Shown: positions 21,763 through 41,310 of the stretch, in pieces
Layout of the letters: every line of letters starts with the position of its first letter
How positions within the stretch are numbered: position 1 is the stretch's first letter
DNA from: Nitrospinales bacterium
Lineage (GTDB): Bacteria > Nitrospinota > Nitrospinia > Nitrospinales > VA-1
Reading direction: 5' to 3'
Length of the DNA stretch: 64,000 bases
NCBI GenBank assembly: GCA_965223795.1
Contig: CBDCXL010000002.1
Location: forward strand, 577,036 to 641,035
Notes under the pieces: model-generated
Database searches by the model: none
What the model was told of the DNA's origin: nothing
What the model saw: the letters and a program-made list of their open reading frames with translations, nothing else
Translations under genes and position numbers: made by a program

Positions 21763-23469
21763 ATGAACCCGCAATTTGAGGAGGAGCACCGGCGTATCCG
21801 TGAGAACTGGGGCTACTTCCCCCTGGACGACTGGTGCTGCGTGCGCGCCTCGGGTGCGGACGTGTTCGATTTCCTGCAAACCCAGACCACCAACGACGTC
21901 ATGCAGCTGCCGGTCGGCGAAGGGCAGAACAGCGCCATCACCGACCGCAAGGCGAAGCTGATCGCCGCGTTTTCGCTGCACCGGCAAGGGGAAGACGCGG
22001 TGGTGTTCTTCCTGGAAGCGGTGCTCAAGGACGCTCTGACCGCGCATCTCAACTCCTTTCTGTTTCGCGAGCAGGTGGTGATCGAGCCTGTGGAGCTGAC
22101 TCTTGTAGCGGTGCAGGGCCCCAAGAGCGCCCTGGTGCTGGAATCTCTGGGCAGCGCGGCGCTGCCGGAAAAACCCAACAGCATCGCGGCCTTCCGATTT
22201 GAAGAAGACGCGGGTATCGTGATCAACAAATCGCTGACCGGGGAGGAAGGGTTCGTGGTGGGTGTTTCGCCCGAACGGGCAAACTCCTTCATTTCAGCGC
22301 TATCGGCCGCGGACACCGGCGCATCCGCCATTTCCAGGGAAACGCTGGAGGTGCTTCGCATCGAGGCGGGGATTCCGCTGTTCGGAAAAGACATGGACAA
22401 CTCCCACGTACTGCCGGAAACGGGTCTGGAGCACAGCTCGGTGAGCTACAACAAGGGCTGCTACATCGGCCAGGAGGTGATCGCCCGCATCAAGACCTAC
22501 GGGGCGCCCAATTTCGCGCTGATGGGGCTTGTGCTCGAGGACGGCCCCCTGCCCGCTCCCGATACGGTTGTGAAGCTCAAGGATAAAAAGATCGGCACGG
22601 TCAAAAGCTCGACATTTTCCCCCTCTTTGGGAAAGAACATCGCCCTGGCCTACGTGCAAAAGGATCACCGCAGCCCGGACGTGACGCTTTCGGTCACGCT
22701 GGGCGAGACGGAAACCCAGGTGACGACCCACCTGTTGCCGTTTTACCAGCCGCGCACGCGCACGGACCATTCGAAGCGGCTTTTGGAAAAGGCGCTCGCC
22801 ATCTACAAAGAGGAAGAGGATCTCGACCGGCCCATTGCCCTGCTTCGGGAAGCCATCGCCATCGACCCCAAGCACGCACAGGCCTACGAGGCGCTGGGCG
22901 TGTTTCTCTCCAAACAGAACAAGCTGGATGAGGCCATCGCGTTGATGAAGCGGCTGGTCGAGATCGACCCCAAGGAAATCATGGCGCACTCCAACCTTTC
23001 GATCTACTACATGAAGCAGGGACGCATCGAGGATGCGGAGATGGAAAAGGGGGAAGCCACGGCCATCGAGTTTGAACGCCTGGTCGAGCAGAACATGGCG
23101 AAAAAGAAAAAGCAGCAGCAGGACGCGGAAGCGCAAAAGGAGCGGGAGCGAAAAATCGAGATGTTCAAGAAGGTGCTGGAAATCGATCCCATCGATCAGG
23201 TGGCCAATTTCGGGCTGGGCTCCATCTACCTGGAAACCGGGCGCCCGCAGGAGGCGCTGGCGCCGCTTGAGACCGTGATCCGCGAGAACAAGGATTATTC
23301 CGCCGCCTATCTGCTTCTGGGCAAGAACCTGGAAAAGCTGGACAGGCTGGATGAGGCCATCGAGGTGTACCGCCAGGGCATCGCCGCCGCATCCAAAAAA
23401 GGCGACCTCATGCCGCTCAAGGACATGCAGAACCGGCTCAACCGGCTGCTGCACCCGCAGGAACCCTGA
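21763..23469 (+). CDS. ygfZ: YgfZ/CAF17 (IBA57-like) folate-binding Fe-S maturation protein fused to a C-terminal TPR domain
   Basis: 568 aa. The N-terminal ~335 aa form a GcvT-like fold carrying the family signature KGCYIGQE. The C-terminal ~230 aa are TPR repeats (for example AIDPKHAQAYEALGVFLSKQNKLDEAIALMKRLVEIDP). Confidence 0.8.
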   Translation: MNPQFEEEHRRIRENWGYFPLDDWCCVRASGADVFDFLQTQTTNDVMQLPVGEGQNSAITDRKAKLIAAFSLHRQGEDAVVFFLEAVLKDALTAHLNSFLFREQVVIEPVELTLVAVQGPKSALVLESLGSAALPEKPNSIAAFRFEEDAGIVINKSLTGEEGFVVGVSPERANSFISALSAADTGASAISRETLEVLRIEAGIPLFGKDMDNSHVLPETGLEHSSVSYNKGCYIGQEVIARIKTYGAPNFALMGLVLEDGPLPAPDTVVKLKDKKIGTVKSSTFSPSLGKNIALAYVQKDHRSPDVTLSVTLGETETQVTTHLLPFYQPRTRTDHSKRLLEKALAIYKEEEDLDRPIALLREAIAIDPKHAQAYEALGVFLSKQNKLDEAIALMKRLVEIDPKEIMAHSNLSIYYMKQGRIEDAEMEKGEATAIEFERLVEQNMAKKKKQQQDAEAQKERERKIEMFKKVLEIDPIDQVANFGLGSIYLETGRPQEALAPLETVIRENKDYSAAYLLLGKNLEKLDRLDEAIEVYRQGIAAASKKGDLMPLKDMQNRLNRLLHPQEP

Positions 23470-23497: not shown

Positions 23498-25198
23498 TCA
23501 GGATCGGCACTGCTCTCCGGGATTGTTCAGATAGGCCCAAAGGTCGGTCCCCGGCATCAGCACGCCTTTTTTGATCAGCCCCTGATTGACGGTCTCGCCG
23601 TGGTCCATGAGGAACCAGAACTTGAGCAGGATTTTCTCCTCGGGCGTGGTGTGGGGGTCTTCCCAGTTCGGCACGGAGCGGTGACTGGCGTGCGCATCCA
23701 ACAGTTCCTGAGGGATCGTGAGCCGTTTCTTTTTGATGAAGGCGTGATAGCCCTCGATGAGGATGGGTTTGAAGTCTTTGCGGCTGATTTTGATCAGCTC
23801 GGACACGCTGGGAACGCCTTCGGCGTGGAACTCGAAAAATTTGAGCTTGTAGTACTGGTGGATGGTCTCCAGCCGGAAATAGCAGTGCAGGTCCACCACA
23901 TCCGGACCGTACAGGCGGATCAGGTAGTCGCGGATCAGGGATTTGCCGACCTTGAGCAGCAGTTTGTTGAGGCGGCCGCGCTCGAAGAGATGGATACGCA
24001 CGGTGCTCAGGTGCTTCAGGCACTGGGCCTCGATGTCTTTGCGGATTTTTTCGGACTGGGCCGGGATGCGGTACCAGTAGATCTCTTCCCGCGCCACGTT
24101 GAGAGCGGAATTGAACGCTTCGTAAATCTGCTGATTGTTGGACCGCTTGGCCTGACGCGCGATCTTATAGGAGCTTTCTTTTGTGAAACCCAGCTCAATC
24201 AATTGATCCTGAAACTCCTTGCGGCTGCCCATGAGAAAGCCGCCGCGTTCTTTGATGTGGTCTTTGGCTTTTTGCACTCCCCGCAGCGCCAGGCTCACGT
24301 CGCGGGGAATCAGCTTCAAATCGTAACTTCGGGCGAATTTGTGGATCTCTTCCAGAGTCTTGAAATTGAGCTTGTCGATGTATAAGAACTTTTGAATGCT
24401 TTGCTCGGTGAAACCGCATTCCTCAAAAATCCGGATCTTCTTGTACTTGACTTCCTCCCAGTACTTGCGCGTGCCCTCTTTCTTCCTGAACTGGGCCTGG
24501 ATTTCGGACTTGGCCTTGAAAAAATAGCTGCGCAGCAGATACCATTTGATTTTCAAGGTGGACTCGATGATCCACCGGTATTTGGGGGTGAGGATGTTGA
24601 GCTTGGGATCTTCGAGAAGCTCCATCTCCTCGGTCTCCAGGATGTACTCCAGAAGCTCCAGATGCCTTTCGAGCAGGATGGGATTGATCTGCTCGATGAA
24701 TTTCCGGTAGATGGTTTTCCAGCGGAAAGGTTCAAACTGGGTAGCCGGTTCGCCGCCTTCGGCTGCATCCTGAATCCGGCTTTTGATTTTCTGCACGCCC
24801 ACTTGCTCGATCTTTTCGAACAATTCGTCGCGGGCGACGATATCACGGATTTTCAGCTGTTTCAGACGGCTGATGACGTCGGGGATGCGTTCGTTTAAGG
24901 CCTCATCGATTTCCCTGTAGGTCTGGATGGGAAGGAAATACAGCTCTTCGAGCAAGCCATTGACGTTTTCCAGGGAAACGTCCGTCTTTTTCGCGAGCTG
25001 GCGGTAGAGATCGAAATCGAGGATCTTGTCGCCGGTCTGGCAGGCGCGGATGTCCTTCAGGAAGCTTCTGGCTTTTTTCAGCTCCTCTCTTTGGGCATAG
25101 GGATCGTTGATGATCCTCAAAAAGAGATATTCCGCCCTTTGCAGATCCCTTTGAGCAAGGAGTTCCAGTCCCTGCGTCATGGGGTCGAATACGAACAT
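23498..25198 (-). CDS. hypothetical 566-aa Lys/Glu-rich helical protein
   Basis: A GGGAGGAAG Shine-Dalgarno precedes the ATG at 25198; the track start at 25318 adds 40 aa. I recognise no motifs. A terminator separates it from nxrC. Confidence 0.6.
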   Translation of the reverse strand: MFVFDPMTQGLELLAQRDLQRAEYLFLRIINDPYAQREELKKARSFLKDIRACQTGDKILDFDLYRQLAKKTDVSLENVNGLLEELYFLPIQTYREIDEALNERIPDVISRLKQLKIRDIVARDELFEKIEQVGVQKIKSRIQDAAEGGEPATQFEPFRWKTIYRKFIEQINPILLERHLELLEYILETEEMELLEDPKLNILTPKYRWIIESTLKIKWYLLRSYFFKAKSEIQAQFRKKEGTRKYWEEVKYKKIRIFEECGFTEQSIQKFLYIDKLNFKTLEEIHKFARSYDLKLIPRDVSLALRGVQKAKDHIKERGGFLMGSRKEFQDQLIELGFTKESSYKIARQAKRSNNQQIYEAFNSALNVAREEIYWYRIPAQSEKIRKDIEAQCLKHLSTVRIHLFERGRLNKLLLKVGKSLIRDYLIRLYGPDVVDLHCYFRLETIHQYYKLKFFEFHAEGVPSVSELIKISRKDFKPILIEGYHAFIKKKRLTIPQELLDAHASHRSVPNWEDPHTTPEEKILLKFWFLMDHGETVNQGLIKKGVLMPGTDLWAYLNNPGEQCRS

Positions 25199-25367
25199 GT
25201 TCTTCCTCCCGCACTCAATCCGGGCTGTTCCGGTCAAGTCTGGGTCTAAGGGTCTTCTCCCCGGCCGACGAGGCGGCCCAAGCAATTTACTGATAGGCTG
25301 ACAGCAGCGTGAAACCAACGGGCAGGATTATCAATAAATTAAGATTTGCTCTTTTTTTTAGATGCGT

Positions 25368-25519: not shown

Positions 25520-26521
25520 TCAGTACTGCAGCTCATGCCACTGGGTGACGCCTTTCTGACCGTTTCTTTCTTTGTTCTGACCGTTCCAGATCGCGAATGC
25601 GATCGGGGTTTTGCCACTCGAAAACTGAGTGTCGTTCTGGTCATCGGTTTTGAGAGCGCGTTTGTAGACTACGCCCCAGCGGTCATTGCTCCAGTTGCCT
25701 TCACCGTCCACATCCTGATTCGCCTGAGTGGTCAGCGTGCTGAACCCTTCGGCATTCAGGTCTTCAACAGGCGATACGCGCATGGATGCTTCGGAGAGGA
25801 TGTTACCGGTAGCACGACCGGGATTGAACACGCCCTCGTCTTTACCCATGCCGAAATCGACGTAGGTGCTGCGCTTGGAGATGTCGCTGGCTCCGCCGGA
25901 CTCGATGCCGGCCGCGTTCCGCTTGGACTTGCTGCCGGAAGCGTGCTGGGTGTCGAGACCTTTGAGTGCACCATCAGGCTCATACATGTAGTAACTGCCG
26001 GAACCCATGGCCATGTACTTGTACTGATCTTCCATGTCCAGCATTCCCTTGTTACCGGTTTTCCCTGCGCCTTCTTTATTCCAGGTCGCTTTCCACTGCC
26101 AGATGTTGACCCGCTCGCCGTCACCACCCATGGTGAACGGAGGCTCTTCACCGGTCTGGTTCACAGGAAACATGATCGCACCCTGGTCCCTGTACTGCTG
26201 GGACTGCACCATGATGTCGTTTCTTGTGGGATCGGTCCAGGAAACCCGGATTGCGATTTCCTTGCCATTGGTGGCGGCTTTCACATTGACCCACTTGGTC
26301 GCGGGATTCGGCCACATGGGATTGGTGATCATCTGCGGATCCAGATCGATGACCACGTGTTTGCCCTTGGTGGGACCGTAATTGGACCAGAAAGGATCGG
26401 TCGGATCAATGGGGATTTCGCCCTGAACTTTCAATGCCTTGATCGTGGCCGCGCCAGCGCTGGACGCAAACAGACCGAGCATCAAAGCTGAAATTAAAAT
26501 GAGTAGATACGTCTTCTTCAC
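25520..26521 (-). CDS. nxrC: NxrC-like gamma subunit (type II DMSO-reductase-family heme-b subunit, EbdC/DdhC-like) with Sec signal peptide
   Basis: 333 aa. The signal peptide is MKKTYLLILISALMLGLFASSAGA. The EB_dh-like region is PFWSNYGP ... AIRVSWTDPTRNDIM ... DQGAIMFPVNQ. It is the last gene of the operon. Confidence 0.7.
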   Translation of the reverse strand: MKKTYLLILISALMLGLFASSAGAATIKALKVQGEIPIDPTDPFWSNYGPTKGKHVVIDLDPQMITNPMWPNPATKWVNVKAATNGKEIAIRVSWTDPTRNDIMVQSQQYRDQGAIMFPVNQTGEEPPFTMGGDGERVNIWQWKATWNKEGAGKTGNKGMLDMEDQYKYMAMGSGSYYMYEPDGALKGLDTQHASGSKSKRNAAGIESGGASDISKRSTYVDFGMGKDEGVFNPGRATGNILSEASMRVSPVEDLNAEGFSTLTTQANQDVDGEGNWSNDRWGVVYKRALKTDDQNDTQFSSGKTPIAFAIWNGQNKERNGQKGVTQWHELQY

Positions 26522-26576: not shown

Positions 26577-27395
26577 CTAACGGGGTTCGCATTCCGCAGG
26601 AGCATTTGCAATCAGATCGTTTTCCATACTGTAGGACAAAGAACGGAATTCCGGTTCTTCCACCTTGATCGGCTGGATGTCCAGAAGCGTGTTTTCGTTC
26701 CTGAGAAAAATCGACAGGATATCGACGATGTCCTTGTACAGTCCGCGTTCCGCCTTGCGGGACGTGAAGATGCAAAACAAAGGAGCCCAGCGTCCAACAT
26801 GGTTGCGCATGAATTTCTTCATGCTGCTGAGCAGGACTCCGATCTTTCGCTCGTCATGACCGTTCTGGATTCCATATGCAGTCCTGAAGCACATGTAATA
26901 CATGAAGGCCAGTTCAATCGAAATATGGTCCAGGCGTTCCTTCGAACGTTTCCTCGGCAATTCGAAACCGAAGGTTTCAAAAAAGCCGCCCAGCTGGATC
27001 AATACGTCCGTCTGGGACTGGATCCCGCCTTCCGTACCATACTGCATTTCGTATGGAGGACACTCCATAGAAACCGCATGCCCGAAAACGTGGATGTACT
27101 CTTTCTGCACCTGCTGGACGGTCATTTTCGGCAGGTATTTGCTGAATCCGCTCACAATGGATTCAACCTGCTTCCAATCGTCCTCGTCCACAAGGGCGAT
27201 ATCCATGGGTTCGAGTAAAGATTTGGGACGGAAAAACTTGCGATTCCAGGGATAACTCAAGGCACGTGAAAGAATATCGTATATCCGTCCTCGCGCGAGG
27301 TTTAGGGATATTCTCTGTTCTTTCAGTTCTTCAAGAGTGCCGGTTTCCCCAAGTTTCGCCAACATGGGATCCGATGCTTGAGTCACGTTCGCCAT
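26577..27395 (-). CDS. TorD/NarJ-family redox-enzyme maturation chaperone
   Basis: 272 aa. The family pattern is QKEYIHVFG ... CPPYEMQYG ... GGFFETFGFEL ... RLDHISIELAFMYYM. It lies between nxrB and nxrC. Confidence 0.75.
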   Translation of the reverse strand: MANVTQASDPMLAKLGETGTLEELKEQRISLNLARGRIYDILSRALSYPWNRKFFRPKSLLEPMDIALVDEDDWKQVESIVSGFSKYLPKMTVQQVQKEYIHVFGHAVSMECPPYEMQYGTEGGIQSQTDVLIQLGGFFETFGFELPRKRSKERLDHISIELAFMYYMCFRTAYGIQNGHDERKIGVLLSSMKKFMRNHVGRWAPLFCIFTSRKAERGLYKDIVDILSIFLRNENTLLDIQPIKVEEPEFRSLSYSMENDLIANAPAECEPR

Positions 27396-27531: not shown

Positions 27532-28809
27532 TTAGATGGCGCCGACATGCTCCTCGGGCCGGACGTAGAAAGGCTCTTCAACCGTCACGCGGATGACTTC
27601 CTTTCCTTTCCGGTTGAACCCGATGATCGTGTCGTTGTACATCTCAAACTTCTTGCCGTGAATGTTGGTCTCGAAGATCTTCGGACCCGGCTCACGTTTC
27701 CATTTGAAGATGATGCGCTGTGTCGTCCTAAAGAGCTGAAGGACGCCCAGCAGATCCCGGTCCGGAACCATGTACTGATCGATCGCATGGTCGACGCCCG
27801 GTCCGAACATCTGCTGTGAATAGGCCCTGGGAACGTGCCGCGACGGTACGTAGTAACCGTTCGGCTCGGTGCCCAGCTGCGGATACAGCGGCAGTGCGAC
27901 TTTGCGGTCCCGGATCATGTAATACTGCGGATTCTCGGGATCGTGCGCCCATTCGCCGTTGCTGCCTATCTTCACCAGACCCTGAAGGCGAATCTTGCCG
28001 ACACAGGCGGCCATGCAGCGGGTCTCCATCTGATCGCCTTCCGTCAACGGATCCAGTCCTTCGATCCTCGGGTAACAGGCGATGCATTTCTCGGAGATCC
28101 GCGTCGTGCCGCGGAACATCGGCTTTTTGTAAGGACACTGCTCAACGCACTTTTTGTAACCACGGCAGCGCGACTGGTCGATCAGAACGATGCCGTCCTC
28201 CTGGCGCTTGTAGATCGCCTTACGGGGACACGCCGCCAGACAGCCCGGATACGTGCAGTGGTTGCAGATGCGCTGGACATAGAAAAACCAGATTTTGTGC
28301 TCGGGCAGCACCGAACGCGTTCCGTTGTCGCCGCCGAAGGTGCCTTCGCGGGACTGCGTGAACTCGCGGCCGTGAGCGGTGTCTTCGCCGAAGTTCGGGA
28401 AGCGCCACTCTTCGTCCGTCGGTACGTAACCGATCGCTTGCTGGTTCAAACCGATCTTGGCAGGCGCTTCGAAAATCGTCACGCCTTCGTACACGCCGTG
28501 GATCGCCTTGTTGGAAGTCTTGCGGACGTTCCACACGTTCTGACCCGGATTGGACTGCTCAAGCATCTTCAAGATCTTCCAATCCCAGAACTGCGGGTAA
28601 CCGCCGTAAGGCTTCGTTTCAACGTTGTTCCACCACATATACTCCTGGCCCTTGGAGAAGGTCCAGGTGGATTTATGGGCCATCGTACACGTCTGACAAG
28701 CAATGCAGCGGTTCGTGTTGAACACGAACGTAAACTGCTCTTTCGGATGCTTCTCTTCGTATACGTAAGTAGACATCCGGCCCAGTTGCCAGTTATAGAC
28801 TTCAGGCAT
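27532..28809 (-). CDS. nxrB: nitrite oxidoreductase beta subunit (Fe-S subunit of a type II DMSO reductase family enzyme)
   Basis: 425 aa. The Cys clusters are CIACQTC, CNHCTYPGCLAACP, CRGYKKCVEQCP, CIACYPR and CMAAC. A perfect TAAGGAGG Shine-Dalgarno is present. Confidence 0.8.
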   Translation of the reverse strand: MPEVYNWQLGRMSTYVYEEKHPKEQFTFVFNTNRCIACQTCTMAHKSTWTFSKGQEYMWWNNVETKPYGGYPQFWDWKILKMLEQSNPGQNVWNVRKTSNKAIHGVYEGVTIFEAPAKIGLNQQAIGYVPTDEEWRFPNFGEDTAHGREFTQSREGTFGGDNGTRSVLPEHKIWFFYVQRICNHCTYPGCLAACPRKAIYKRQEDGIVLIDQSRCRGYKKCVEQCPYKKPMFRGTTRISEKCIACYPRIEGLDPLTEGDQMETRCMAACVGKIRLQGLVKIGSNGEWAHDPENPQYYMIRDRKVALPLYPQLGTEPNGYYVPSRHVPRAYSQQMFGPGVDHAIDQYMVPDRDLLGVLQLFRTTQRIIFKWKREPGPKIFETNIHGKKFEMYNDTIIGFNRKGKEVIRVTVEEPFYVRPEEHVGAI

Positions 28810-32500: not shown

Positions 32501-32517
32501 ATTCGTGGGTCACGAAT
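32501..32517. promoter_or_regulatory. perfect palindrome ATTCGTG-N3-CACGAAT about 140 nt upstream of nxrA
   Basis: It has 7-bp arms and a 3-nt spacer, and starts 18 nt downstream of the stop of the preceding gene. It could be an operator or a small hairpin. Confidence 0.35.
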
Positions 32518-32534
32518 TAACATGATCGGCCGGA

Positions 32535-33755
32535 TCAACCGACTCCGGCCCTCAACTCATACACTTCGATGCAACGGTCACAGGCCCCGTCCTTGCTTTC
32601 CCAGTCGGGAAAATCAATCTGGATGGCCTCGATGACCATTTCATCGCAGATACTCTCGGGATCGTCCACCCAGTTGTAAGTGGGAAACTTGCACAACGGG
32701 CACGGGGATCCCTGCAAATGGATATAGTCTCTCTCCTCTTCCGCCAACTCCGCTTCATCAACATACTTGGCCATCAGCGTGTCCAGATCGGTGGCCATCG
32801 ACAACAATTCCTCATGGGTGAACACTTCGGTGCGCCACAAGCCTTCGAAGATACCCTTACGCTGACCATCCGGAATTTTGCGGTAAAAGTTGTCGAATTC
32901 GCGGTAGCGGGATTCTTTGGACATAACGGACACAACGCCCATTCTGGCCAATCGCGCATCCACATAAACGTTCCACAACAGGCGGAAGCGTGCGGTGATC
33001 ATGTTCTTGACCGACGGATTACCGGGAATGAAGGAATCCTCGTAGTCAAACTCAGGATCGACCATATCCTTCGCATGCATGAACTCGTGGATGAGAAACG
33101 CATCCAGCTCCTGGACTTCCTCAGGATTGCTGAAACGGCTCGCCAGAACCCGCATCTCGATGATGGGCTTGTTGGAGGTTCGCGCCAGAACATTCGAACC
33201 TTCATCAACCTTGTTGATCGCCCGTTTGACCGTGACCTCCTGAATTCGTTCTTCAAAGTCACGCGCCAGATCGTAGGCGATCTCGCCTTCATCGATGTCG
33301 TCTTGGGGCTGATCTGAAACTTCGGAAGCGTCTTCTTGGGTGGGGACAGGCTGATCCTGCTCGGTGGGAGTGCTTTCTAGGGTTTCGCCTTGGGATGCTT
33401 CCGGGGAAGAAGCGTCTTCTTCTAGGGTTTCGCCGGACGTTTCTTCCGCTGATGGATCCTGCAACTGGTGGGATTGAGGAGCCTTATTGCGGCCAACGGA
33501 GCGCTGACTCTTTGGAATCAGGCCAACCGCCTCTAAGGCTCGCAGCACATGTTCCCCGAGTTTCAGCTTCTCTATGAAGAACAGGCGGTTTACTTTCTCA
33601 AACGCCTCTTCGCGGTCGTCCTCGGGGAGTTCGTATATGGGGTCCGCAAGGGAATGGTATTCATCATAATCGGCACGGAACCCGGAACGCTCATGGTGGT
33701 TCAGGTGCCTGAATACGGCTTCTTCCATCAATTGCGGGCTGTAGGTAACTTTCAT
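32535..33755 (-). CDS. hypothetical protein with an HExxH motif, an acidic low-complexity linker and a C-terminal CxxC...CxxC zinc-ribbon
   Basis: 406 aa. It contains FLIHEFMHAKD, a roughly 90-aa Glu/Asp/Ser/Pro-rich linker with GETLE repeats, and a C-terminus CPLCKF ... CDRCIEVY. It lies immediately upstream of nxrA on the same strand. Confidence 0.6.
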   Translation of the reverse strand: MKVTYSPQLMEEAVFRHLNHHERSGFRADYDEYHSLADPIYELPEDDREEAFEKVNRLFFIEKLKLGEHVLRALEAVGLIPKSQRSVGRNKAPQSHQLQDPSAEETSGETLEEDASSPEASQGETLESTPTEQDQPVPTQEDASEVSDQPQDDIDEGEIAYDLARDFEERIQEVTVKRAINKVDEGSNVLARTSNKPIIEMRVLASRFSNPEEVQELDAFLIHEFMHAKDMVDPEFDYEDSFIPGNPSVKNMITARFRLLWNVYVDARLARMGVVSVMSKESRYREFDNFYRKIPDGQRKGIFEGLWRTEVFTHEELLSMATDLDTLMAKYVDEAELAEEERDYIHLQGSPCPLCKFPTYNWVDDPESICDEMVIEAIQIDFPDWESKDGACDRCIEVYELRAGVG

Positions 33756-34200
33756 CTGCCCATTTCTATTAAGATAAAGCGGTCAGCGTGCAAGGATCGA
33801 TATTAAGTTTTCCCGGCGTCTTTTTACCCTAGATGGAGTAAGTTATATGTAACTTCAAAGCCATTGTCAAGACAAACCCATCATTTTTTTTGGGGAAAAA
33901 CTGGGGAAAAACTTTGAATTTTCCCGCCTCTTCGGCACGCGAGGAGAGATTTTTTCTACTGCGATCCCATTTGCCAACAACTATTTGATTTGCCTAAAGT
34001 TTTTACAAAAAAACAGTGCGATAGAAAGGTTTTTCAGACACATCGGGCGGGAACCCACTGGCCTTGATCTCAAAATCCACAATATGGATCACAGCCCCTT
34101 ATCACAATTCCTAATTTCTCACTAAAAATCCGGAATCACGATCCCGCCCTCAATTCAGAGACTTGTGCCGGACAGCCTGACCGGCTTTTGTTCGGACTGC

Positions 34201-36831
34201 CTATTTTTTATCGACAGCATCTTTCAGCTTGTCGATTTCCTGGATCATCTTCATGAAATGCTCGGGGTCGCCCAGCTCTTTGGCCACCGCACGGGCATTT
34301 TCGAGGTATTTCTCCCCCGGGTCCTTCCTGCTGAGCAGGATTTCCATGCGAGCCACGGTTAAAAGCAACTGGATCTGATGCGAAAGGGCCCTGGCTTCGG
34401 CAAACGTTTCCGCAGCCTGGTCGAAGTAGGACTCCCCCTCCTCAAATTGGATCTCCTTGAAATGGAGGTTCCCCAGATAGGTCAGATCCTGAGCGCATCC
34501 GATTTTATCTCCTATTTCCCGCGTCAGAGCCAATGCCTTGAGATACAGTTGTTTGGCCTTGACCCGGTCGCCGTTGCTGAAACTCAGGTTGGCGAGGTTG
34601 CGGTAATCCTCAGCCATTCCCTGCTTGTCTTTATTCCTTTCGACAATATCGAAAGATTCCTGATATCTGGTTTCGGCTTTTTCTTTATATCCACGTTCCA
34701 GAAAATACTGGCCGAGGCTTCTGAGATCGATGCTGATTTCCTTGTCGTCTTTGAGCGCCCTTGCGAACTCCAGGGCTTTCTCAAGATAGGACTGCTGATT
34801 CGGCCGGTCTTTCTTCTCTGAATAGATGTTTGCCAGATTGCGGCAATCGTAGCAGGCGGCACGCAGGTTTTTGCTTTCCTCGGCAATTTCAAGAGCCTTC
34901 AGGGCGTACTGCTCCGCCCGGCCCCAGTCCTCCTTCTGCACGTACAGCGCATACAGGTTCCTGTGGTCTTCGCTCATCTCCACCCGGTTGCCTGCCTGCT
35001 CGTCGAGCTTGAGCGCCTCCAGGTAATTGCGTTCCGCGCCGGCAAAATCGGTCTTGTTGAGACACATGTCCCCCAGACTGCGGTGATCTTCGACCTGACC
35101 GCGGCTGTCGCCCTGCCCTTCATGGAAGGCGATGGATTTTTTCATCCACTTTTCGGCGGCATCAAATTTATTGAGCTGGACGAACATCTTCGCCCGGCTG
35201 CGGTAGAGTTCGCCCAGCCCCTGCCTGTCGCCGAGCTTTTCCTTGATGGCGATCGCCTGGCCGTAGGACTCACCGGCTTTTTGATATTCCTTTTTCTCCT
35301 GCAGGACTCCGGCAAGGCTCTCCAGAACGGCGGCCTTCACGCCTTCGTCCTTGGACATTTCCGGCAGGGCGAGGGCTTTTTCAAACGCAGCGACGGCTTC
35401 ATCGAGCTGCCCCGCCATGAAATGCACGTTGGCCAGCTCGGTCATGAGGCTCATCTTTGCGGCGGGGTCCTTTTCGACGTCCGGGCTTTCCAGCAGGGAG
35501 GCGATGTCTTCCTGCCTCTGGGACAGGTATTTGGGCTGCGCCATGATGTAGACGAGCTTGTCCTGCACCTGCTGGGTGCTGCGGCTGTCTTTCATGGCGT
35601 CGTACAGGGAGTTGGCGCGGATGAAATAGGACTCGGCGTCCCTGTATTCCTCTTTTTTCATCAGGATGTCGCCGATGGCCTCGCACTGCTGCGCCATGCC
35701 GGGACGGTTTTCCAGCTTCTCCATGATCTCGAGCGACTGCCGATACAACTCCAGCGCGGGCTCCCACTCTTCCTTAAGGGTGCGCACCTGCCCGAGGTTG
35801 GCAAAACTGCGCGCCTCGCCCAACGCATCGCCCAGGGCGCTCATGATTTTGCGGGAATCTTCGTAGTACTCCAGCGCCTGATCGAGGTTTTTCTTGTGCA
35901 GGCATATGTTGCCGAGGCTGCCCAGAAGGTAGGACTGACGGCGCTGGTCCTTGCCTTCCTGAACGATCTTCAAGGCCTTGCGGAAATTTTCCTCGGCGCT
36001 GTCGAGGTATTCCGGGCCGCCTTTCTGCGCCAGTTGCAGGCAGGCTCCGCCCAGATTGCCGTAACAGATGCCGGCGGACTGGGTGTCCCCCAGTTCTTCA
36101 TAAAGGGCGATGGATTTTTCTATGGTCTCGGCGACCTTGTCCATTCGGGCGGATTTGAAATAGATCTCCTCAAGCTCCTGATAGCGGGCCAGCAATTCTT
36201 TTTTGTCGCCGGATTGCGCCAGAGAGTTGATGGTCTTGAGCAGCGCGGTCTCCTGCTGCGCGAGATAGCGGGTGTTCTTCTGGATGGATTCGACTTTATC
36301 GTTGAGCGCGTCGATCCGCTCCTTGTCTTTTTCCGGGTCCAGGCTCGCATGCGCCTTCTGGAAGTAATCCTTCGCGGTGTCGAATTCCTCTTTCTGCATG
36401 TGAACGTTGCCGAGGTACTCATAATAGACCGCCTGGCCGCCGGTGTCGTTCGCCTTGACCATGAGCTGCAAGGCTTTGTGGTAATTTTCCTCGGCCTTGT
36501 CCAGGCTGCCTTTGTACAGATACACCGAACCCAGGTTGCCGAGGGAGCTTTCGATGCCTTTCAGATCCTCCACTTTTTCCATCAGCGCCAAAGACTGGGA
36601 ATAGTAGTCCTCCGCCTTGTCCAGCTTGCGGCTCTGAAAACAGATATTCCCCAGGTTGCCGAGCACATAGGCCTGGCCGGTTTCGTCGCCCGACTGATGC
36701 ATGAACTTGAGGGCCTTGAGAAAATGGGATTCCGCTTCTTTCAAATCGTTTTTTTCCAGCGAGGCGTAACCGAGTTTTTCGTATTTTCTTCCGTCTTCCA
36801 TCGGGCAATCACTTAAAAGAGAGGTTGTCAT
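34201..36831 (-). CDS. large tetratricopeptide-repeat (TPR) protein
   Basis: About 876 aa of nearly continuous TPR units, following a recurring A/G..Y..LG..Y pattern. The start is uncertain: ATG at 36831 or 36801, while the track start at 36993 adds implausible residues. Confidence 0.75.
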   Translation of the reverse strand: MTTSLLSDCPMEDGRKYEKLGYASLEKNDLKEAESHFLKALKFMHQSGDETGQAYVLGNLGNICFQSRKLDKAEDYYSQSLALMEKVEDLKGIESSLGNLGSVYLYKGSLDKAEENYHKALQLMVKANDTGGQAVYYEYLGNVHMQKEEFDTAKDYFQKAHASLDPEKDKERIDALNDKVESIQKNTRYLAQQETALLKTINSLAQSGDKKELLARYQELEEIYFKSARMDKVAETIEKSIALYEELGDTQSAGICYGNLGGACLQLAQKGGPEYLDSAEENFRKALKIVQEGKDQRRQSYLLGSLGNICLHKKNLDQALEYYEDSRKIMSALGDALGEARSFANLGQVRTLKEEWEPALELYRQSLEIMEKLENRPGMAQQCEAIGDILMKKEEYRDAESYFIRANSLYDAMKDSRSTQQVQDKLVYIMAQPKYLSQRQEDIASLLESPDVEKDPAAKMSLMTELANVHFMAGQLDEAVAAFEKALALPEMSKDEGVKAAVLESLAGVLQEKKEYQKAGESYGQAIAIKEKLGDRQGLGELYRSRAKMFVQLNKFDAAEKWMKKSIAFHEGQGDSRGQVEDHRSLGDMCLNKTDFAGAERNYLEALKLDEQAGNRVEMSEDHRNLYALYVQKEDWGRAEQYALKALEIAEESKNLRAACYDCRNLANIYSEKKDRPNQQSYLEKALEFARALKDDKEISIDLRSLGQYFLERGYKEKAETRYQESFDIVERNKDKQGMAEDYRNLANLSFSNGDRVKAKQLYLKALALTREIGDKIGCAQDLTYLGNLHFKEIQFEEGESYFDQAAETFAEARALSHQIQLLLTVARMEILLSRKDPGEKYLENARAVAKELGDPEHFMKMIQEIDKLKDAVDKK

Positions 36832-37075
36832 CGGAAGGGACACAGACACGCTGGGACCCCGAAGATGAAGAAAGACCCGGCGAACAAAACGCTGCGGCGG
36901 CCTGATCTTGTTGTAGAAAGTGAATGATATCGAATTATATTGCCCGGAAAGAGAGGTGTCAACATGAGGCCCAAGGGATGGACCGGCACCCATTATAGCG
37001 CATCCGAATTTTAATGTGTTTGTTTTTTATGGAATATCAATCAGTTTTTGAATATCCGCAATCGGCAGGCAGGCA

Positions 37076-37143: not shown

Positions 37144-39117
37144 ATGTCCGATCTCGATAAGCTCGTATCCATTCTCGACCGTCCGCACACGCTTTCGTTC
37201 GATTCCAGCAAGTCCGCCGCCGAGGCGCTCAAGGCCTGCCAGTCCGAACTCAACAGCAGCACCCTGGACGGCGCCACGTACTGGCACCTGGGAGAGCAGC
37301 CGGGAGCGGCGGCGACCCGCATCAAGAAGTACCCCACCGGGCACAAGGCGTTTTATTCGCCCGAGGGGATGCGGTTTCTCACCACGGACCCGGAGGGCGA
37401 ACCGCTCAACGAAAGCGACTGGGTTCAGGATGCGGAGTTCGGTGGACTCCGTCTCAACCGGGTGCGGATGCAGCTCGATTCCAAGCAGTGGATCGGCCTG
37501 GTGCCGCGGGCCAAGTCTTTCAAGACCGAGATCGACATCAAGGGGCAGCCGGGCTGGCAGGAGATGCAACTAGACGATCTGCGCAAAAAGGCCGCCGAGG
37601 CCTGGCGGGTGCCGTTTTCGGAAGTGAAGTATTTTTACAACGACAACAACATCGTGCCCAAGGGCGAGGGCAAGTACGAGATCCATTTGACCAAGGACAG
37701 CCTGTACGCCCTGGGCGATGGCGCATTCGACGACAAAAAGCTGTTCATGAGCTTTCTGTTTTCGGTGAACTGGGAGGATCTGGACCTGATCCCGGTGGTG
37801 GAGTTGTTTCAATCGACGCTGCCGGGCAGCGGCGGCGCGTGTTTCGAGTACATCTGGGGGCTGCACGAGGATCAGTCGCGCAGCAAAACGCTGGCGCCTT
37901 TGCGCTACCGGGGGCTTCCCACCTACCCCTCGAAAGAAGCGTTCAACATTTTCTGCGCTTTTTTCACGCCCAAAGGGCCCGAAGGCACGGCGGATCAGGA
38001 CATCTACAAGATCTTCATGAACGCGGACACCTCGCACCAGATCGAATGGACGCCGAAACCCAACCCGCCCTGGCGCTATTTCAGCGCCACGCACGAACTG
38101 ACGCTCACCATCCAGGACGGCCTGCTGTACAAAGTGACGGTGCTCAACGACCCGGTGCCGATCCCGTACGTCAACCGCGAGCTGGGGGGCAAGCCGTCGT
38201 GCCAGCGGGAGCTGGTGGTGCGGACCAACGAATTCGAACTGCTGGACGGCCCAAAGCTGCGCGAGGTGCCGTTCTACCCGGCCTGGCCCATCAAACCGCA
38301 GACCAACACGCCGCGGCCGCCGGAAAAGGTTCCCTTCGACTGGAAATGGTTCTTCAACGGGTTCCCGCCGCAGGTGGACCCGGTCAAGGCGCTGCACACG
38401 GTGCCCTTCTACCCGGAAGGGGCGCAGGAAATCGACGAATCGGCGCTGCAGCCGATGGTGCTGGATCAGATTTTCTATTACATGGAAATGTCGCCGGGCA
38501 TGCCGGCCAAACTGGAAAAGGTGGAGAAGGTCCTCATCCACACCTTCGACACGGTCATCGCCGGCTGCGTGGACTGCACGCACGAACGGGAATACACGGT
38601 GCTGTTCAGCGATCCGGAATTCGCGCAGAAAAACGCCTGCCTGTTGTGGAATTACGGCGCCAAGCGCAAGCAGCTCGACAATCTGAAAAAAGTGTCCTTC
38701 CTGCCGGAGCGGGACAACATCCAGGAAGTGTACAAGGAAAAATACGGTCTGGTGTTCAAATGGATCCCGTTCATGTATTTCCAGGACCGGGAAGCCTGCG
38801 AGAGCATGCTCAAGGCGCTGGTGGACGTGCTCTTGCCGGAGGGCATCCTGTTTCTGGTGGCGCCGAGGCCCATACAGGGCCTGTTTTCGCATTACGGCCT
38901 GGAATGCCTGTACAACGATCCGGTCGTGAACATGCCGTTCTTCAGGCAGCATCTGAAGATGTGCCCGGAAAACTACGTCAACCCGGAGCTTGCGGTGTTC
39001 CTGGCCGAGAAGAAAGAAGTCTCCAAACCCGATGAAGCCCCGCCGCACCCGCCCGCAGAAGAGAAACGCGGCGCGCCGCGGCCGATGATCCGCGATTTCC
39101 AGCGCAAAATCCATTGA
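37144..39117 (+). CDS. hypothetical 657-aa protein, no recognisable family
   Basis: A long ORF with native-like codon usage. The C-terminal ~150 aa (YGLVFKWIPFMYF ... LLPEGILFLVAP) loosely resemble the distal half of a class I methyltransferase fold, but no Gly-rich SAM loop is present. Confidence 0.65.
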   Translation: MSDLDKLVSILDRPHTLSFDSSKSAAEALKACQSELNSSTLDGATYWHLGEQPGAAATRIKKYPTGHKAFYSPEGMRFLTTDPEGEPLNESDWVQDAEFGGLRLNRVRMQLDSKQWIGLVPRAKSFKTEIDIKGQPGWQEMQLDDLRKKAAEAWRVPFSEVKYFYNDNNIVPKGEGKYEIHLTKDSLYALGDGAFDDKKLFMSFLFSVNWEDLDLIPVVELFQSTLPGSGGACFEYIWGLHEDQSRSKTLAPLRYRGLPTYPSKEAFNIFCAFFTPKGPEGTADQDIYKIFMNADTSHQIEWTPKPNPPWRYFSATHELTLTIQDGLLYKVTVLNDPVPIPYVNRELGGKPSCQRELVVRTNEFELLDGPKLREVPFYPAWPIKPQTNTPRPPEKVPFDWKWFFNGFPPQVDPVKALHTVPFYPEGAQEIDESALQPMVLDQIFYYMEMSPGMPAKLEKVEKVLIHTFDTVIAGCVDCTHEREYTVLFSDPEFAQKNACLLWNYGAKRKQLDNLKKVSFLPERDNIQEVYKEKYGLVFKWIPFMYFQDREACESMLKALVDVLLPEGILFLVAPRPIQGLFSHYGLECLYNDPVVNMPFFRQHLKMCPENYVNPELAVFLAEKKEVSKPDEAPPHPPAEEKRGAPRPMIRDFQRKIH

Positions 39118-39471: not shown

Positions 39472-41310
39472 CTACATCATCACTTCCGGGGCCAGCTCGC
39501 GGTGGTCTTCGGTCTGGTTCTTGACGTAGATGTCGGGCAGGTTGTTGGTGCCGAAGTGGGTGATGTACAGGTAGACGTGCTCGCGGGCGTTGATCCTCAG
39601 CGCCCAGGGGCCGAAGTCGTTCTGGTAGAAGCTTTCGTAACGCTTCATCGCCTCTTCGGTGGTCTGGCCGGATTCGGGGGTGTAGTAGTAATCCAGCGCC
39701 AGGTCGTGCTCGGGGATTTCCTTCACGTTGATTTTGTACTCATCGGCGGCGTTGAAGATCGGCGCGTTGTTGTACAGGACGAAGAAGTACATCTCCACCG
39801 AATGGATGATGTCCTGGTGGTCGAGGAGAAACCGGCGGGTGTCCTCGGCCTCTTCGGGCGTCTCGCTGGGAAAGCCGTAAAAGCCCATGACGTGGCTCCA
39901 TATGCCCACGCGCCGCGCCTCGTTGAGATTCTTGATCGCCGCCTGTATATCCGTATCCTTTTTGACCAGCTTGATGATGCGCTCGTTGGCGGACTCCAGG
40001 CCGAAATACAGCGAACGGCAGCCGGACTCGGCGGCCTTGTCCCACAACTCGGGCTCCAGCAGGCTCGATTCGAATCGGATGAGCGTGGTCCAGTAGATGT
40101 CGAGCTTGGCCTCGATCATCATGGGCGGCAGCTTGACGAACAGCGCCGGCGGGAACGACTCGTCGGTGAACAGAAAGTGTTTGGCCTGATATTTGTCGCG
40201 CAGCTCGGCCAGCTCGCGCACGATCTGGTCGGCGTGCTTGGCGCGGAACTGATCGATGTAACCCGCGCCGTGATCGCAGAAGGTGCATTTGCCCCAGTAG
40301 CAGCCGCGCGTGCCCAGGTAGGGGACGATTTTTTCCGGGGCGAAGTACTTGTCCCAGGGCAGCCCGTCGAAATCGGGGATGGGCAGCTCGCTCACGCGTT
40401 CCTGATGCAATTCGTTGACGTGCAACTGACCGGCCTCATCCTTGTAGATGAGGTTGGGCACTTCGGATATGGGCCTTCTTCCGGACAACGCCTCGACCAG
40501 CCGCACCATCGCGTGCTCGCCTTCGTAGGTGATCATGGAATCGAAGGCGCTGCCCCAGAACTCTTCACGTTTGGGCAGCTGATCCTTGAGCCGGGTGACG
40601 ACATTGCCTCCCACCGTCACGTGAATGTGCGGGTAGTGTTTCTTGATGAGGGTGGAAAACGTGATGCCGGACATGAGCTGCACCGGCGTGCCGATGGAGA
40701 TGCCGATGACGTCGGGCTTCTCATTCTCGAGGTACTGGAACACCAGCTGGCGGCAGACGTCGGCGTAGACGTTCACCTTGTCGTCGTGCGGCGCTTTCAA
40801 GAGATCCGCGGACACCCAGGGCCGGTAGACGTTGAGATTGCTCTCGACGGGATAGAATTGCACGCTCGCCGGGAAATAGGCCACGGAGATGTATTCCATG
40901 ACTTCGCGGAAGGCGTTGAGCGCCCATTCGGCCTTGTCGATTTCGTAGAATTCCTCGGTGCGCATGATGACCTTGGCGCGCTCCACTTTCTGGATGTGGT
41001 GCTCAAGATCGATGCGGGTGTAGTCCTTCAGCATGCGCAGCAGATCGGTCTCCTGGTCTGTGAGACCGGTCCACTTTTTCGCGTTGAGCTCCTTGATCTG
41101 GTTGCGGATGCGCCCGGCAACGAACTCCAGATAATTGCGGGAAAAAAAGTGGTCGTACATCTCGACGTTGACGTCTTTCTGCACAACTTCGATGCCGTTC
41201 TGCCTGAGCACGGCGGTGAGGCTGGGCAGGGCCAGGTAAGGCGCTGTGGGAACCCATTCCGGGGGGAACAGCAGCATGACTTTTTTCAAGGGCTGCGGGT
41301 TTTGCGTCAC
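39472..41310 (-). CDS. B12-binding-domain radical SAM protein (class B-like)
   Basis: 612 aa. It has an N-terminal cobalamin-domain-like region (KVMLLFPPEWVPTAPYLALPSL), the cluster motif GTRGCYWGKCTFCDHG (40276-40305) and YFGLESANERI. The start codon is GTG; an alternative ATG lies at 41277. Confidence 0.8.
   Translation of the reverse strand: MTQNPQPLKKVMLLFPPEWVPTAPYLALPSLTAVLRQNGIEVVQKDVNVEMYDHFFSRNYLEFVAGRIRNQIKELNAKKWTGLTDQETDLLRMLKDYTRIDLEHHIQKVERAKVIMRTEEFYEIDKAEWALNAFREVMEYISVAYFPASVQFYPVESNLNVYRPWVSADLLKAPHDDKVNVYADVCRQLVFQYLENEKPDVIGISIGTPVQLMSGITFSTLIKKHYPHIHVTVGGNVVTRLKDQLPKREEFWGSAFDSMITYEGEHAMVRLVEALSGRRPISEVPNLIYKDEAGQLHVNELHQERVSELPIPDFDGLPWDKYFAPEKIVPYLGTRGCYWGKCTFCDHGAGYIDQFRAKHADQIVRELAELRDKYQAKHFLFTDESFPPALFVKLPPMMIEAKLDIYWTTLIRFESSLLEPELWDKAAESGCRSLYFGLESANERIIKLVKKDTDIQAAIKNLNEARRVGIWSHVMGFYGFPSETPEEAEDTRRFLLDHQDIIHSVEMYFFVLYNNAPIFNAADEYKINVKEIPEHDLALDYYYTPESGQTTEEAMKRYESFYQNDFGPWALRINAREHVYLYITHFGTNNLPDIYVKNQTEDHRELAPEVMM

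Follow-up and report, generated by a model that had tools for sequence, protein, structure and literature searches.

An unclassified protein family linked to periplasmic nitrite oxidoreductase gene clusters and its candidate role in enzyme maturation

The gene X locus and its product

The stretch of DNA analysed here (the window) comprises 64,000 nucleotides (nt) from a Nitrospinales bacterium (VA-1; assembly GCA_965223795.1, contig CBDCXL010000002.1, positions 577,036–641,035 of the forward strand) and carries a gene module for nitrite oxidoreductase (NXR). The subject of this report is an open reading frame (ORF) of 406 amino acids (aa) in that module, denoted gene X or simply X; residue numbers are those of the window protein. 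An original prediction, made from the sequence of the window, had placed this ORF on the nxr strand, ending 173 nt before nxrA, and both the ORF calls and the profile matches of nxrA agree with that description. The next downstream ORF on the same strand can be named nxrA because it combines a twin-arginine signal with matches to the molybdopterin and type II dimethyl sulfoxide (DMSO) reductase alpha profiles.

The X protein has four parts (Table 1): an N-terminal helical domain, an acidic linker, a core that bears the HEFMH motif and a C-terminal domain with two cysteine pairs (Cys4). This anatomy, proposed earlier, is supported by the sequence and by AlphaFold2 modelling. An alignment of 18 close orthologues yielded a predicted local distance difference test score (pLDDT) of 45; with an alignment of 115 family representatives, on which the conservation counts given below are also based, the pLDDT was 84 and the predicted template modelling score 0.76. 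In the latter model everything except the linker is confidently folded. The N-terminal domain is made of four helices (7–23, 28–42, 45–63 and 68–76). The core has three strands (173–178, 186–190 and 198–203), followed by a helix (211–232) carrying the motif FLIHEFMHAKD (H223/E224/H227); its near-universal residues are E224, D230, F236, R256, W261 and R268. The cysteine pairs lie in CPLCKF (C352/C355) and CDRCIEVY (C392/C395). The four-cysteine module is therefore present as described, but the protein contains five cysteines in all, the fifth, C370, being restricted to Nitrospinota.

The linker is acidic and disordered (pLDDT <55), as had been suggested, but it is shorter than the roughly 90 residues first given, at about 78, and the GETLE repeats amount to exactly two copies, at residues 108 and 123, which the homologues do not conserve. 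It has an isoelectric point (pI) of 4.05, with 21 aspartates and glutamates against 3 lysines and arginines, and is variable within Nitrospinota. Since most relatives measure 300–340 aa and have no acidic linker, as is the case for the homologues of other phyla, it is a Nitrospinota insertion.

X is a cytoplasmic protein. It has no signal peptide or transmembrane segment, and its hydropathy does not exceed 0.97 (Kyte–Doolittle scale, 19 residues). The pI is 4.5 for the whole protein and 4.05 for the Cys4 domain; the acidic character of the core and ribbon suits the binding of protein or peptide, not of nucleic acid.

Table 1. Gene X, the parts of its product and the surrounding features of the window.
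Feature	Position	Strand	Basis and remarks
Gene X, cytoplasmic protein of an unclassified NXR-cluster family	32535–33755	-	ORF of 406 aa, ATG start, stop codon at 32535–32537
X, N-terminal helical domain (aa 1–82)	33510–33755	-	Conserved Y41, R48, F52, F60; pLDDT 94–98
X, acidic disordered linker (aa 83–160)	33276–33509	-	AlphaFold2 pLDDT 26–53; composition; Nitrospinota-only insertion
X, zincin-like core (aa 161–345)	32721–33275	-	AlphaFold2 sheet, motif helix and helical bundle; pLDDT mostly >90
X, HEFMHAKD motif (H223–D230)	33066–33089	-	Sequence
X, C-terminal Cys4 zinc-ribbon-like domain (aa 346–406)	32538–32720	-	CPLCxFPT...W...DFPxW...CxRC; pLDDT 89–97; acidic
Candidate sigma-70-like promoter, TTGACA-17 nt-TATAAC	33842–33870	-	86 nt before the start codon of X; consensus match only
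nxrA, Tat-exported molybdopterin subunit, 1153 aa	28900–32361	-	Pfam Molybdopterin; type II DMSO-reductase alpha; twin-arginine signal; Cx3Dx3C FS0 motif
nxrB, 4Fe-4S subunit	27532–28809	-	Pfam Fer4_11, 4e-22
NarJ/TorD-like NXR chaperone, most constant neighbour of X across phyla	26577–27395	-	Pfam Nitrate_red_del, 1.7e-16; synteny
nxrC-like haem b subunit	25520–26521	-	Pfam EB_dh, 3.6e-30
606-aa protein, no Pfam match	23498–25318	-	Downstream flank of the nxr module
930-aa tetratricopeptide repeat (TPR) protein	34201–36993	-	Upstream of X
657-aa protein (U657), no Pfam match	37144–39117	+	Upstream of X, divergent
B12-binding radical SAM protein	39472–41310	-	Pfam; recurs in Nitrospinota, Nitrospira and anammox loci

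Family membership and conservation of the motif

X has 1,227 relatives in a database clustered at 90% identity, the closest 120 of them being 73–100% identical to it, and an exhaustive profile search recovered 737 clusters of the family at 50% identity. Orthologues across Nitrospinota are 64–92% identical, with invariant blocks outside the linker. Judged by this pattern, X is a real gene under strong purifying selection.

The original prediction assigned X to no family, and the searches lead to the same result. No Pfam match to the window protein was found at E≤1 and NCBIfam returned only noise (E>0.1), while a Pfam scan of the 115 representatives gave none that reached threshold. A sequence search of the PDB with window X and a search of PDB sequences with the family profile were both empty, and comparison of the X model with the PDB and BFVD by Foldseek gave nothing significant (best E 0.58 and 0.11, respectively). 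Zincins recur among the non-significant Foldseek matches (4l7a, snapalysin, lethal factor, SprT-like, IrrE, M48), and the sub-threshold Pfam matches within the family are to M91, M76 and M90. The Nitrate_red_del domain (PF02613), which defines the neighbouring chaperone gene, was not found in X; no profile or fold match to FdhE or rubredoxin was seen despite the two invariant CxxC pairs, and the profile scans detected no helix-turn-helix (HTH) or other DNA-binding domain. Candidate domain fusions were uninformative: the family members P0249 and P0188 resemble chimeric gene calls, and the extension of P0140 has no Pfam match. As the PDB and BFVD hold no significant structural relative, the core is zincin-like at best and the family unclassified. 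X belongs to a large, NXR-cluster-specific family that lacks a classification.

Conservation is strict over much of the protein. C352, C355, F236 and W261 are kept in all 115 representatives, C392, C395, D230 and R268 in 114, W385 in 113 and E224 in 112. The two motif histidines are kept less well (H227 in 102/115, H223 in 94/115), so that HExxH is intact in 86 and HExxHxxD in 85 of the representatives. The metalloprotease-like motif pointed out earlier is therefore present in the window, but the family as a whole does not conserve both histidines together with the glutamate, as a zincin would. In one clade of marine Nitrospinaceae, 17 species-level Nitrospinota genomes carry AFLIQEFMHAKDMVDPEFDY, which over its 20 residues is identical to window X save for H223Q. 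Other degenerate forms were located, namely VExxQ (in a Poribacteria metagenome-assembled genome, MAG), RExxH, QExxH, RQxxH, TQxxY and HExxR, and all but one adjoin NxrA-like genes; the Poribacteria protein, in which both motif histidines are missing, is still nxr-linked. The catalytic-type histidines are thus dispensable in several lineages, and on these alignments 'metalloprotease' is doubtful as the function of the family.

The best candidate for a third zinc ligand would be D266. This position is acidic in 82 of 86 representatives with an intact motif versus 19 of 29 with a degenerate one (p = 1.3e-4, uncorrected for phylogeny).

Linkage to NXR gene clusters

Loci containing X homologues were sought with a search seeded by an alignment of a 10-sequence subset, and X was placed within the fetched loci by tblastn. 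The resulting set, cited here by L numbers, consists of 176 loci; a sampling of one genome per species and the metagenomes supplied 80 each, and exact protein look-up the remaining 16. X was counted as linked when a gene for an NXR subunit or a NarJ/TorD-like chaperone lay within 3 kb. This holds for 148 of the 176 loci, or 148 of the 149 informative ones, the other 27 carrying no information, since their contigs stop within 1.3 kb of X on its downstream side. Linked loci were found in Nitrospinota, Nitrospirota, Scalindua, Brocadiales, Poribacteria and others, as expected if the homologues are syntenic with nxr clusters.

The order of genes differs between lineages, but the linkage is retained. 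In the informative Nitrospinota loci it runs from a radical SAM gene through U657 (on the opposite strand) and the TPR gene to X, which is followed by the NarJ-like gene (25 loci), nxrA (9) or nxrB (6). The position 'immediately upstream of nxrA' stressed in the original prediction is true of the window; in the Nitrospinota loci overall the next gene is mostly NarJ-like, and since NarJ comes directly after X on several complete Nitrospinota chromosomes, adjacency to nxrA is one variant and not the rule. In Nitrospira, where X is about 38% identical to window X and about 330 aa long, a sigma-54 two-component system and a WD40 gene on the opposite strand precede X, which is followed by a 2x[4Fe-4S] ferredoxin, the NarJ-like gene, nxrC and the B12-binding radical SAM gene; nxrA is not in this locus. 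The Scalindua order is nxrB, a 190-aa ORF, NarJ, X, nxrA and radical SAM, with X and NarJ overlapping by 20 nt. The Brocadiales order is nxrC, nxrB, NarJ, X, nxrA, radical SAM, nxrC, ferredoxin, Mrp/ParA-like, TatA and MobB. In others, Poribacteria among them, X overlaps the start of nxrA. The constant partner of X is the NarJ-like chaperone, not nxrA. Adjacent NxrA-like proteins all have a twin-arginine signal, and the islands that hold X also contain ferredoxin, Mrp-like, TatA, MobB and MoaA genes.

Two further observations concern the Nitrospinota loci. In six Nitrospinota genomes X is directly followed by nxrB and then NarJ, with no nxrA between them (L017, 9261–10535, on the complete chromosome OZ253582.1; L007, L008, L010, L036 and L043), the nxrB being 97–98% identical to that of the window; this is either a real nxrB-only layout or an assembly collapse of duplicated nxrAB. 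In addition, 12 of 52 Nitrospinota contigs end less than 400 nt past X (L006, L009, L014, L018, L020, L023, L025, L033, L045, L047, L049 and L050), which is consistent with assembly breaks at multi-copy, near-identical nxrAB; claims from MAGs on the copy number or position of nxr near X therefore need care.

Orthologues and NXR in the literature

The published gene order of Nitrospira moscoviensis comprises NITMOv2 genes 3628 (WD40), 3627 (999 bp, unknown), 3626 (NapG-like ferredoxin), 3625 (chaperone) and 3624 (NxrC) (PMC6606698). As this order matches that of the Nitrospira loci (for example L060), NITMOv2_3627 (= NIDE3281, CBK42971.1) is the positional orthologue of X, belonging to the same family by gene order and length. 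It shares with X its position between the WD40 gene and the ferredoxin, chaperone and NxrC genes, and the Nitrospira proteins differ in being about 330 rather than 406 aa long and in lacking the acidic linker. The gene is transcribed during nitrite oxidation (rank 729; the chaperone has rank 40) (PMC6606698 supplement); no expression data were found for Nitrospina. Table S12 of a later study also includes it in a set of genes found specifically in NXR-encoding Nitrospirales, and gives it no annotation from COG, KEGG or Pfam (PMC12342949). Its published label is 'conserved protein of unknown function', and the literature contains no domain analysis or function for it.

Lucker et al. noted in 2013 that Kuenenia, Nitrospira and Nitrospina share a 'putative zinc finger' protein in their NXR clusters (PMC3578206), which may be X. 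In Kuenenia, kustd1701 ('unknown protein') lies between kustd1702 and nxrA, and its transcript is co-regulated with the cluster (PMC6423088). Word-indexed homologue searches from the Scalindua and Brocadiales X proteins reached no Kuenenia-named protein. The Nitrotoga nxrABCD operon has been described without an X-like gene (10.1101/317552).

The NXR purified from Kuenenia has A, B, C and T subunits only (PMC8387239); X is therefore not a structural subunit.

Proposed role and alternatives

We read X as a cytoplasmic accessory factor in the maturation or assembly of NXR, specific to the periplasmic form of the enzyme that is exported by the Tat pathway, with a probability of roughly 55%. The more general role in NXR biogenesis, at which the original prediction had guessed with caution, is well supported by association, that is, by synteny. 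A step before export is favoured because X is cytoplasmic and acidic, is absent from the mature enzyme, lies beside or overlaps the NarJ-like gene, occurs in islands with cofactor and Tat genes, and is restricted to clusters whose NxrA is Tat-exported. In the proposed mechanism, X and the NarJ/TorD-like chaperone would jointly handle the precursor of NxrA in its apo form, at the time when the cofactors, molybdenum bis(pyranopterin guanine dinucleotide) (Mo-bisPGD) and the iron–sulfur cluster FS0, are inserted. Its architecture would combine the N-terminal helical domain with a core derived from zincins and a zinc-ribbon-like Cys4 domain. Its conserved activity would be binding or scaffolding, with the zincin cleft as a peptide-binding groove, since the would-be zinc ligands have been lost repeatedly under otherwise strict conservation. 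The HExxH site with D266, kept in most lineages including that of the window, could add a peptidase activity.

Several points weigh against this reading. The functional case is guilt by association throughout, and the zincin assignment itself comes without a significant structural or profile match. One informative locus (L089) breaks the linkage: there X follows MobB, and no NXR gene lies within 10 kb. The product of kustd1701 was undetected in the Kuenenia proteome (PMC6423088), its equivalence to X being positional. Finally, no loss of HExxH was seen in the window or in any of the loci examined from Nitrospira, Scalindua and Brocadiales; together with the co-variation of D266 this makes a real catalytic metal site quite possible in those lineages.

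The last point leads to the alternative that X is an active zinc metallopeptidase, which would either trim pre-NxrA after cofactor insertion, like the [NiFe]-hydrogenase endopeptidases, or degrade mis-assembled precursor. Besides the retained motif and the distribution of acidic residues at position 266, the zincin-like placement of the motif helix after a three-stranded sheet in the AlphaFold2 model speaks for it, as does the enrichment of zincins (4l7a, snapalysin, lethal factor, SprT-like, M91, M76 and M90) among the weak fold and Pfam matches, none of which is significant, however. About 25% of the representatives have lost one or both histidines with all else kept; a whole Nitrospinaceae clade has glutamine at the first ligand position, and some nxr-adjacent homologues have no motif histidine at all. 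Given that homologues still linked to nxr have repeatedly lost the site, proteolysis is not the reason for the conservation of the family. The Kuenenia NXR paper, in whose text the words 'maturation' and 'N-terminus' do not appear, moreover describes no processing of NxrA beyond removal of the Tat signal (PMC8387239), and on balance we consider an active peptidase unlikely. Less likely still is that X regulates nxr expression, as a zinc-ribbon nucleic-acid binder or as partner or antagonist of the sigma-54 activators nearby. X does lie upstream of nxrA in the window, loci of Nitrospira, Scalindua and Brocadiales have sigma-54 two-component systems beside the cluster, and one homologue was auto-annotated by JGI as 'predicted Zn-ribbon and HTH transcriptional regulator'. 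MtfA, a zincin with a similar HExxHxxD motif, works by binding a transcription factor. The acidic pI values of X and its Cys4 domain are, however, unfavourable for binding DNA or RNA, and a DNA-binding domain was not detected. The X–nxrA spacer has no sigma-54 promoter or conserved operator, and the tightest linkage of X, including overlapping frames, is to the chaperone, as is typical of assembly partners.

It is similarly improbable that X is a factor delivering metal or iron–sulfur clusters, whose Cys4 domain would bind iron in a rubredoxin-like manner (compare FdhE) and which, with a NapF/NapG-like ferredoxin and an Mrp/NBP35-like ATPase, would build an Asp-ligated FS0. The genes for such partners are at hand: in Nitrospira and L096 the gene next after X encodes a 2x[4Fe-4S] ferredoxin, and ferredoxin and ParA/Mrp-like genes occur in the Brocadiales and Scalindua islands. 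FS0 ligation by three cysteines and one aspartate (3Cys/1Asp) is moreover a peculiarity of this NXR lineage (PMC8387239). Its typical form in Nitrospina, Nitrospira and anammox NXR is CxPNDTHxC, and the NxrA beside an intact X has the Cx3Dx3C motif in all 18 loci. An all-Cys FS0 (CSPNCTHxC) was found only beside degenerate X, the first motif histidine of which is missing in every case; the NxrA-like genes concerned are at L090 4054–7518, L092 10970–14425, L094 8624–11896 (L094/95) and in L097, one of them being from a Poribacteria MAG. A general rule by which decay of the X motif tracks the change from Asp to Cys was nevertheless rejected: the all-Cys proteins form a single clade in the NxrA tree, so the association counts as one evolutionary event, and the degenerate X of L091 and L096 accompany Asp-type NxrA. 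The four degenerate states of X within the all-Cys clade suggest relaxed selection on H223. That the HExxH/D266 site is tied to the 3Cys/1Asp [4Fe-4S] cluster FS0, with X building or proof-reading that cluster or the Cx3Dx3C segment and the site decaying where FS0 reverted to all-Cys, has in our estimate little chance of being right. X also resembles FdhE and rubredoxin neither in sequence nor in fold, and zinc in the Cys4 domain is indistinguishable from iron in silico.

Relation to known systems

As a maturation factor, X would resemble the NarJ/TorD/DmsD chaperones (PF02613), which likewise are cytoplasmic and enzyme-specific, share an operon with the Mo-bisPGD enzyme that they serve and do not form part of the mature complex; they have no sequence or fold kinship to X, and have neither its motif helix nor its Cys4 domain. 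Atp23 (peptidase M76) is a mitochondrial zincin that processes Atp6 and chaperones its assembly, the assembly function being independent of the catalytic site. It is, as X may be, an HExxH protein devoted to one respiratory complex, and five members of the X family match Pfam M76 weakly (best E 0.043). All of these matches are below threshold, however, none involves window X, and Atp23 has no zinc ribbon.

The layout of an HExxH helix and a Cys4 ribbon is shared with SprT-like, Spartan-type minimal zincins, and SprT-like viral models and lethal factor are among the weak Foldseek matches. One sub-threshold Pfam match in the family is to M90, the family of MtfA, and we take the 'IHEFxHAxD' string of X to resemble the motifs of lethal factor and MtfA. 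All three differ from X in genomic context and inferred role; the E values are ≥0.1, and X has no match to the Pfam SprT-like or Zn_ribbon_SprT profiles. FdhE and NapF are cytoplasmic Cys-rich or Fe-S helpers that act before export on the Tat-exported formate dehydrogenase and nitrate reductase, respectively. A NapF/G-like ferredoxin directly adjoins X in Nitrospira; FdhE has four CxxC pairs, compared with two in X, and no detectable homology to it.

Implications

NXR makes essentially all nitrate in nature (PMC8387239). The enzyme is not expressible heterologously and the organisms that have it are without genetic tools (PMC8387239), so that its maturation needs are a practical bottleneck. 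X is a candidate addition, with NarJ, the NapF-like ferredoxin and the B12-binding radical SAM protein, to heterologous NXR expression. The comparisons delineate a large unclassified family whose members accompany the periplasmic type of NXR in at least four phyla, with a NarJ-like protein as constant partner and a protease-like motif that is dispensable in several lineages. It offers a new metagenome marker gene for the periplasmic NXR type, and it merits a Pfam entry.

Neighbouring genes and intergenic regions

The genes for the 657-aa, 606-aa and 930-aa TPR proteins are syntenic in all Nitrospinota loci, whereas the loci from Nitrospira and anammox bacteria yielded none of them; they accompany the module in this lineage only. 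Where the nxr module ends, and convergent with it, a gene on the plus strand (21763–23469) encodes a 568-aa fusion of a GcvT-type aminomethyltransferase/folate-binding domain with C-terminal TPRs, conserved in nearly all Nitrospinota loci. The B12-binding radical SAM protein (about 570–610 aa) shares the X/NarJ/nxrC neighbourhood in Nitrospinota, Nitrospira, Scalindua and Brocadiales (for example L060 12124–13905, L083 7537–9261 and L093 14573–16273). Nitrospira copies are 33–35% identical to that of the window, and a role of this protein in NXR biology appears undescribed in the NXR literature examined.

The promoter candidate upstream of X was read from the sequence; the consensus scan accepts only T as the sixth base of the -10 hexamer and so missed TATAAC. 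Searches for sigma-54 promoters and Rfam families around gene X gave nothing. Between X and nxrA no convincing terminator, sigma-54 site, Rfam match or conserved operator was seen, and conservation of this spacer is limited to the ribosome-binding site of nxrA. Just past the X stop codon the spacer contains a palindrome, TTCGTGACCCACGAA (32502–32516, minus strand), which is partly kept in the closest relative, L002 (CATGACCCACGATAG), and not in Nitrospinota further removed; it may represent a weak hairpin or a site for a regulator.

The gap between nxrA and nxrB in the window is 90 nt long and contains no small ORF. Several distant lineages have an ORF of about 100–120 aa, with no Pfam match, between the nxrA-like and nxrB-like genes (L090 7533–7889, L092 14476–14844, L086 5650–5964 and L087 5581–5877).

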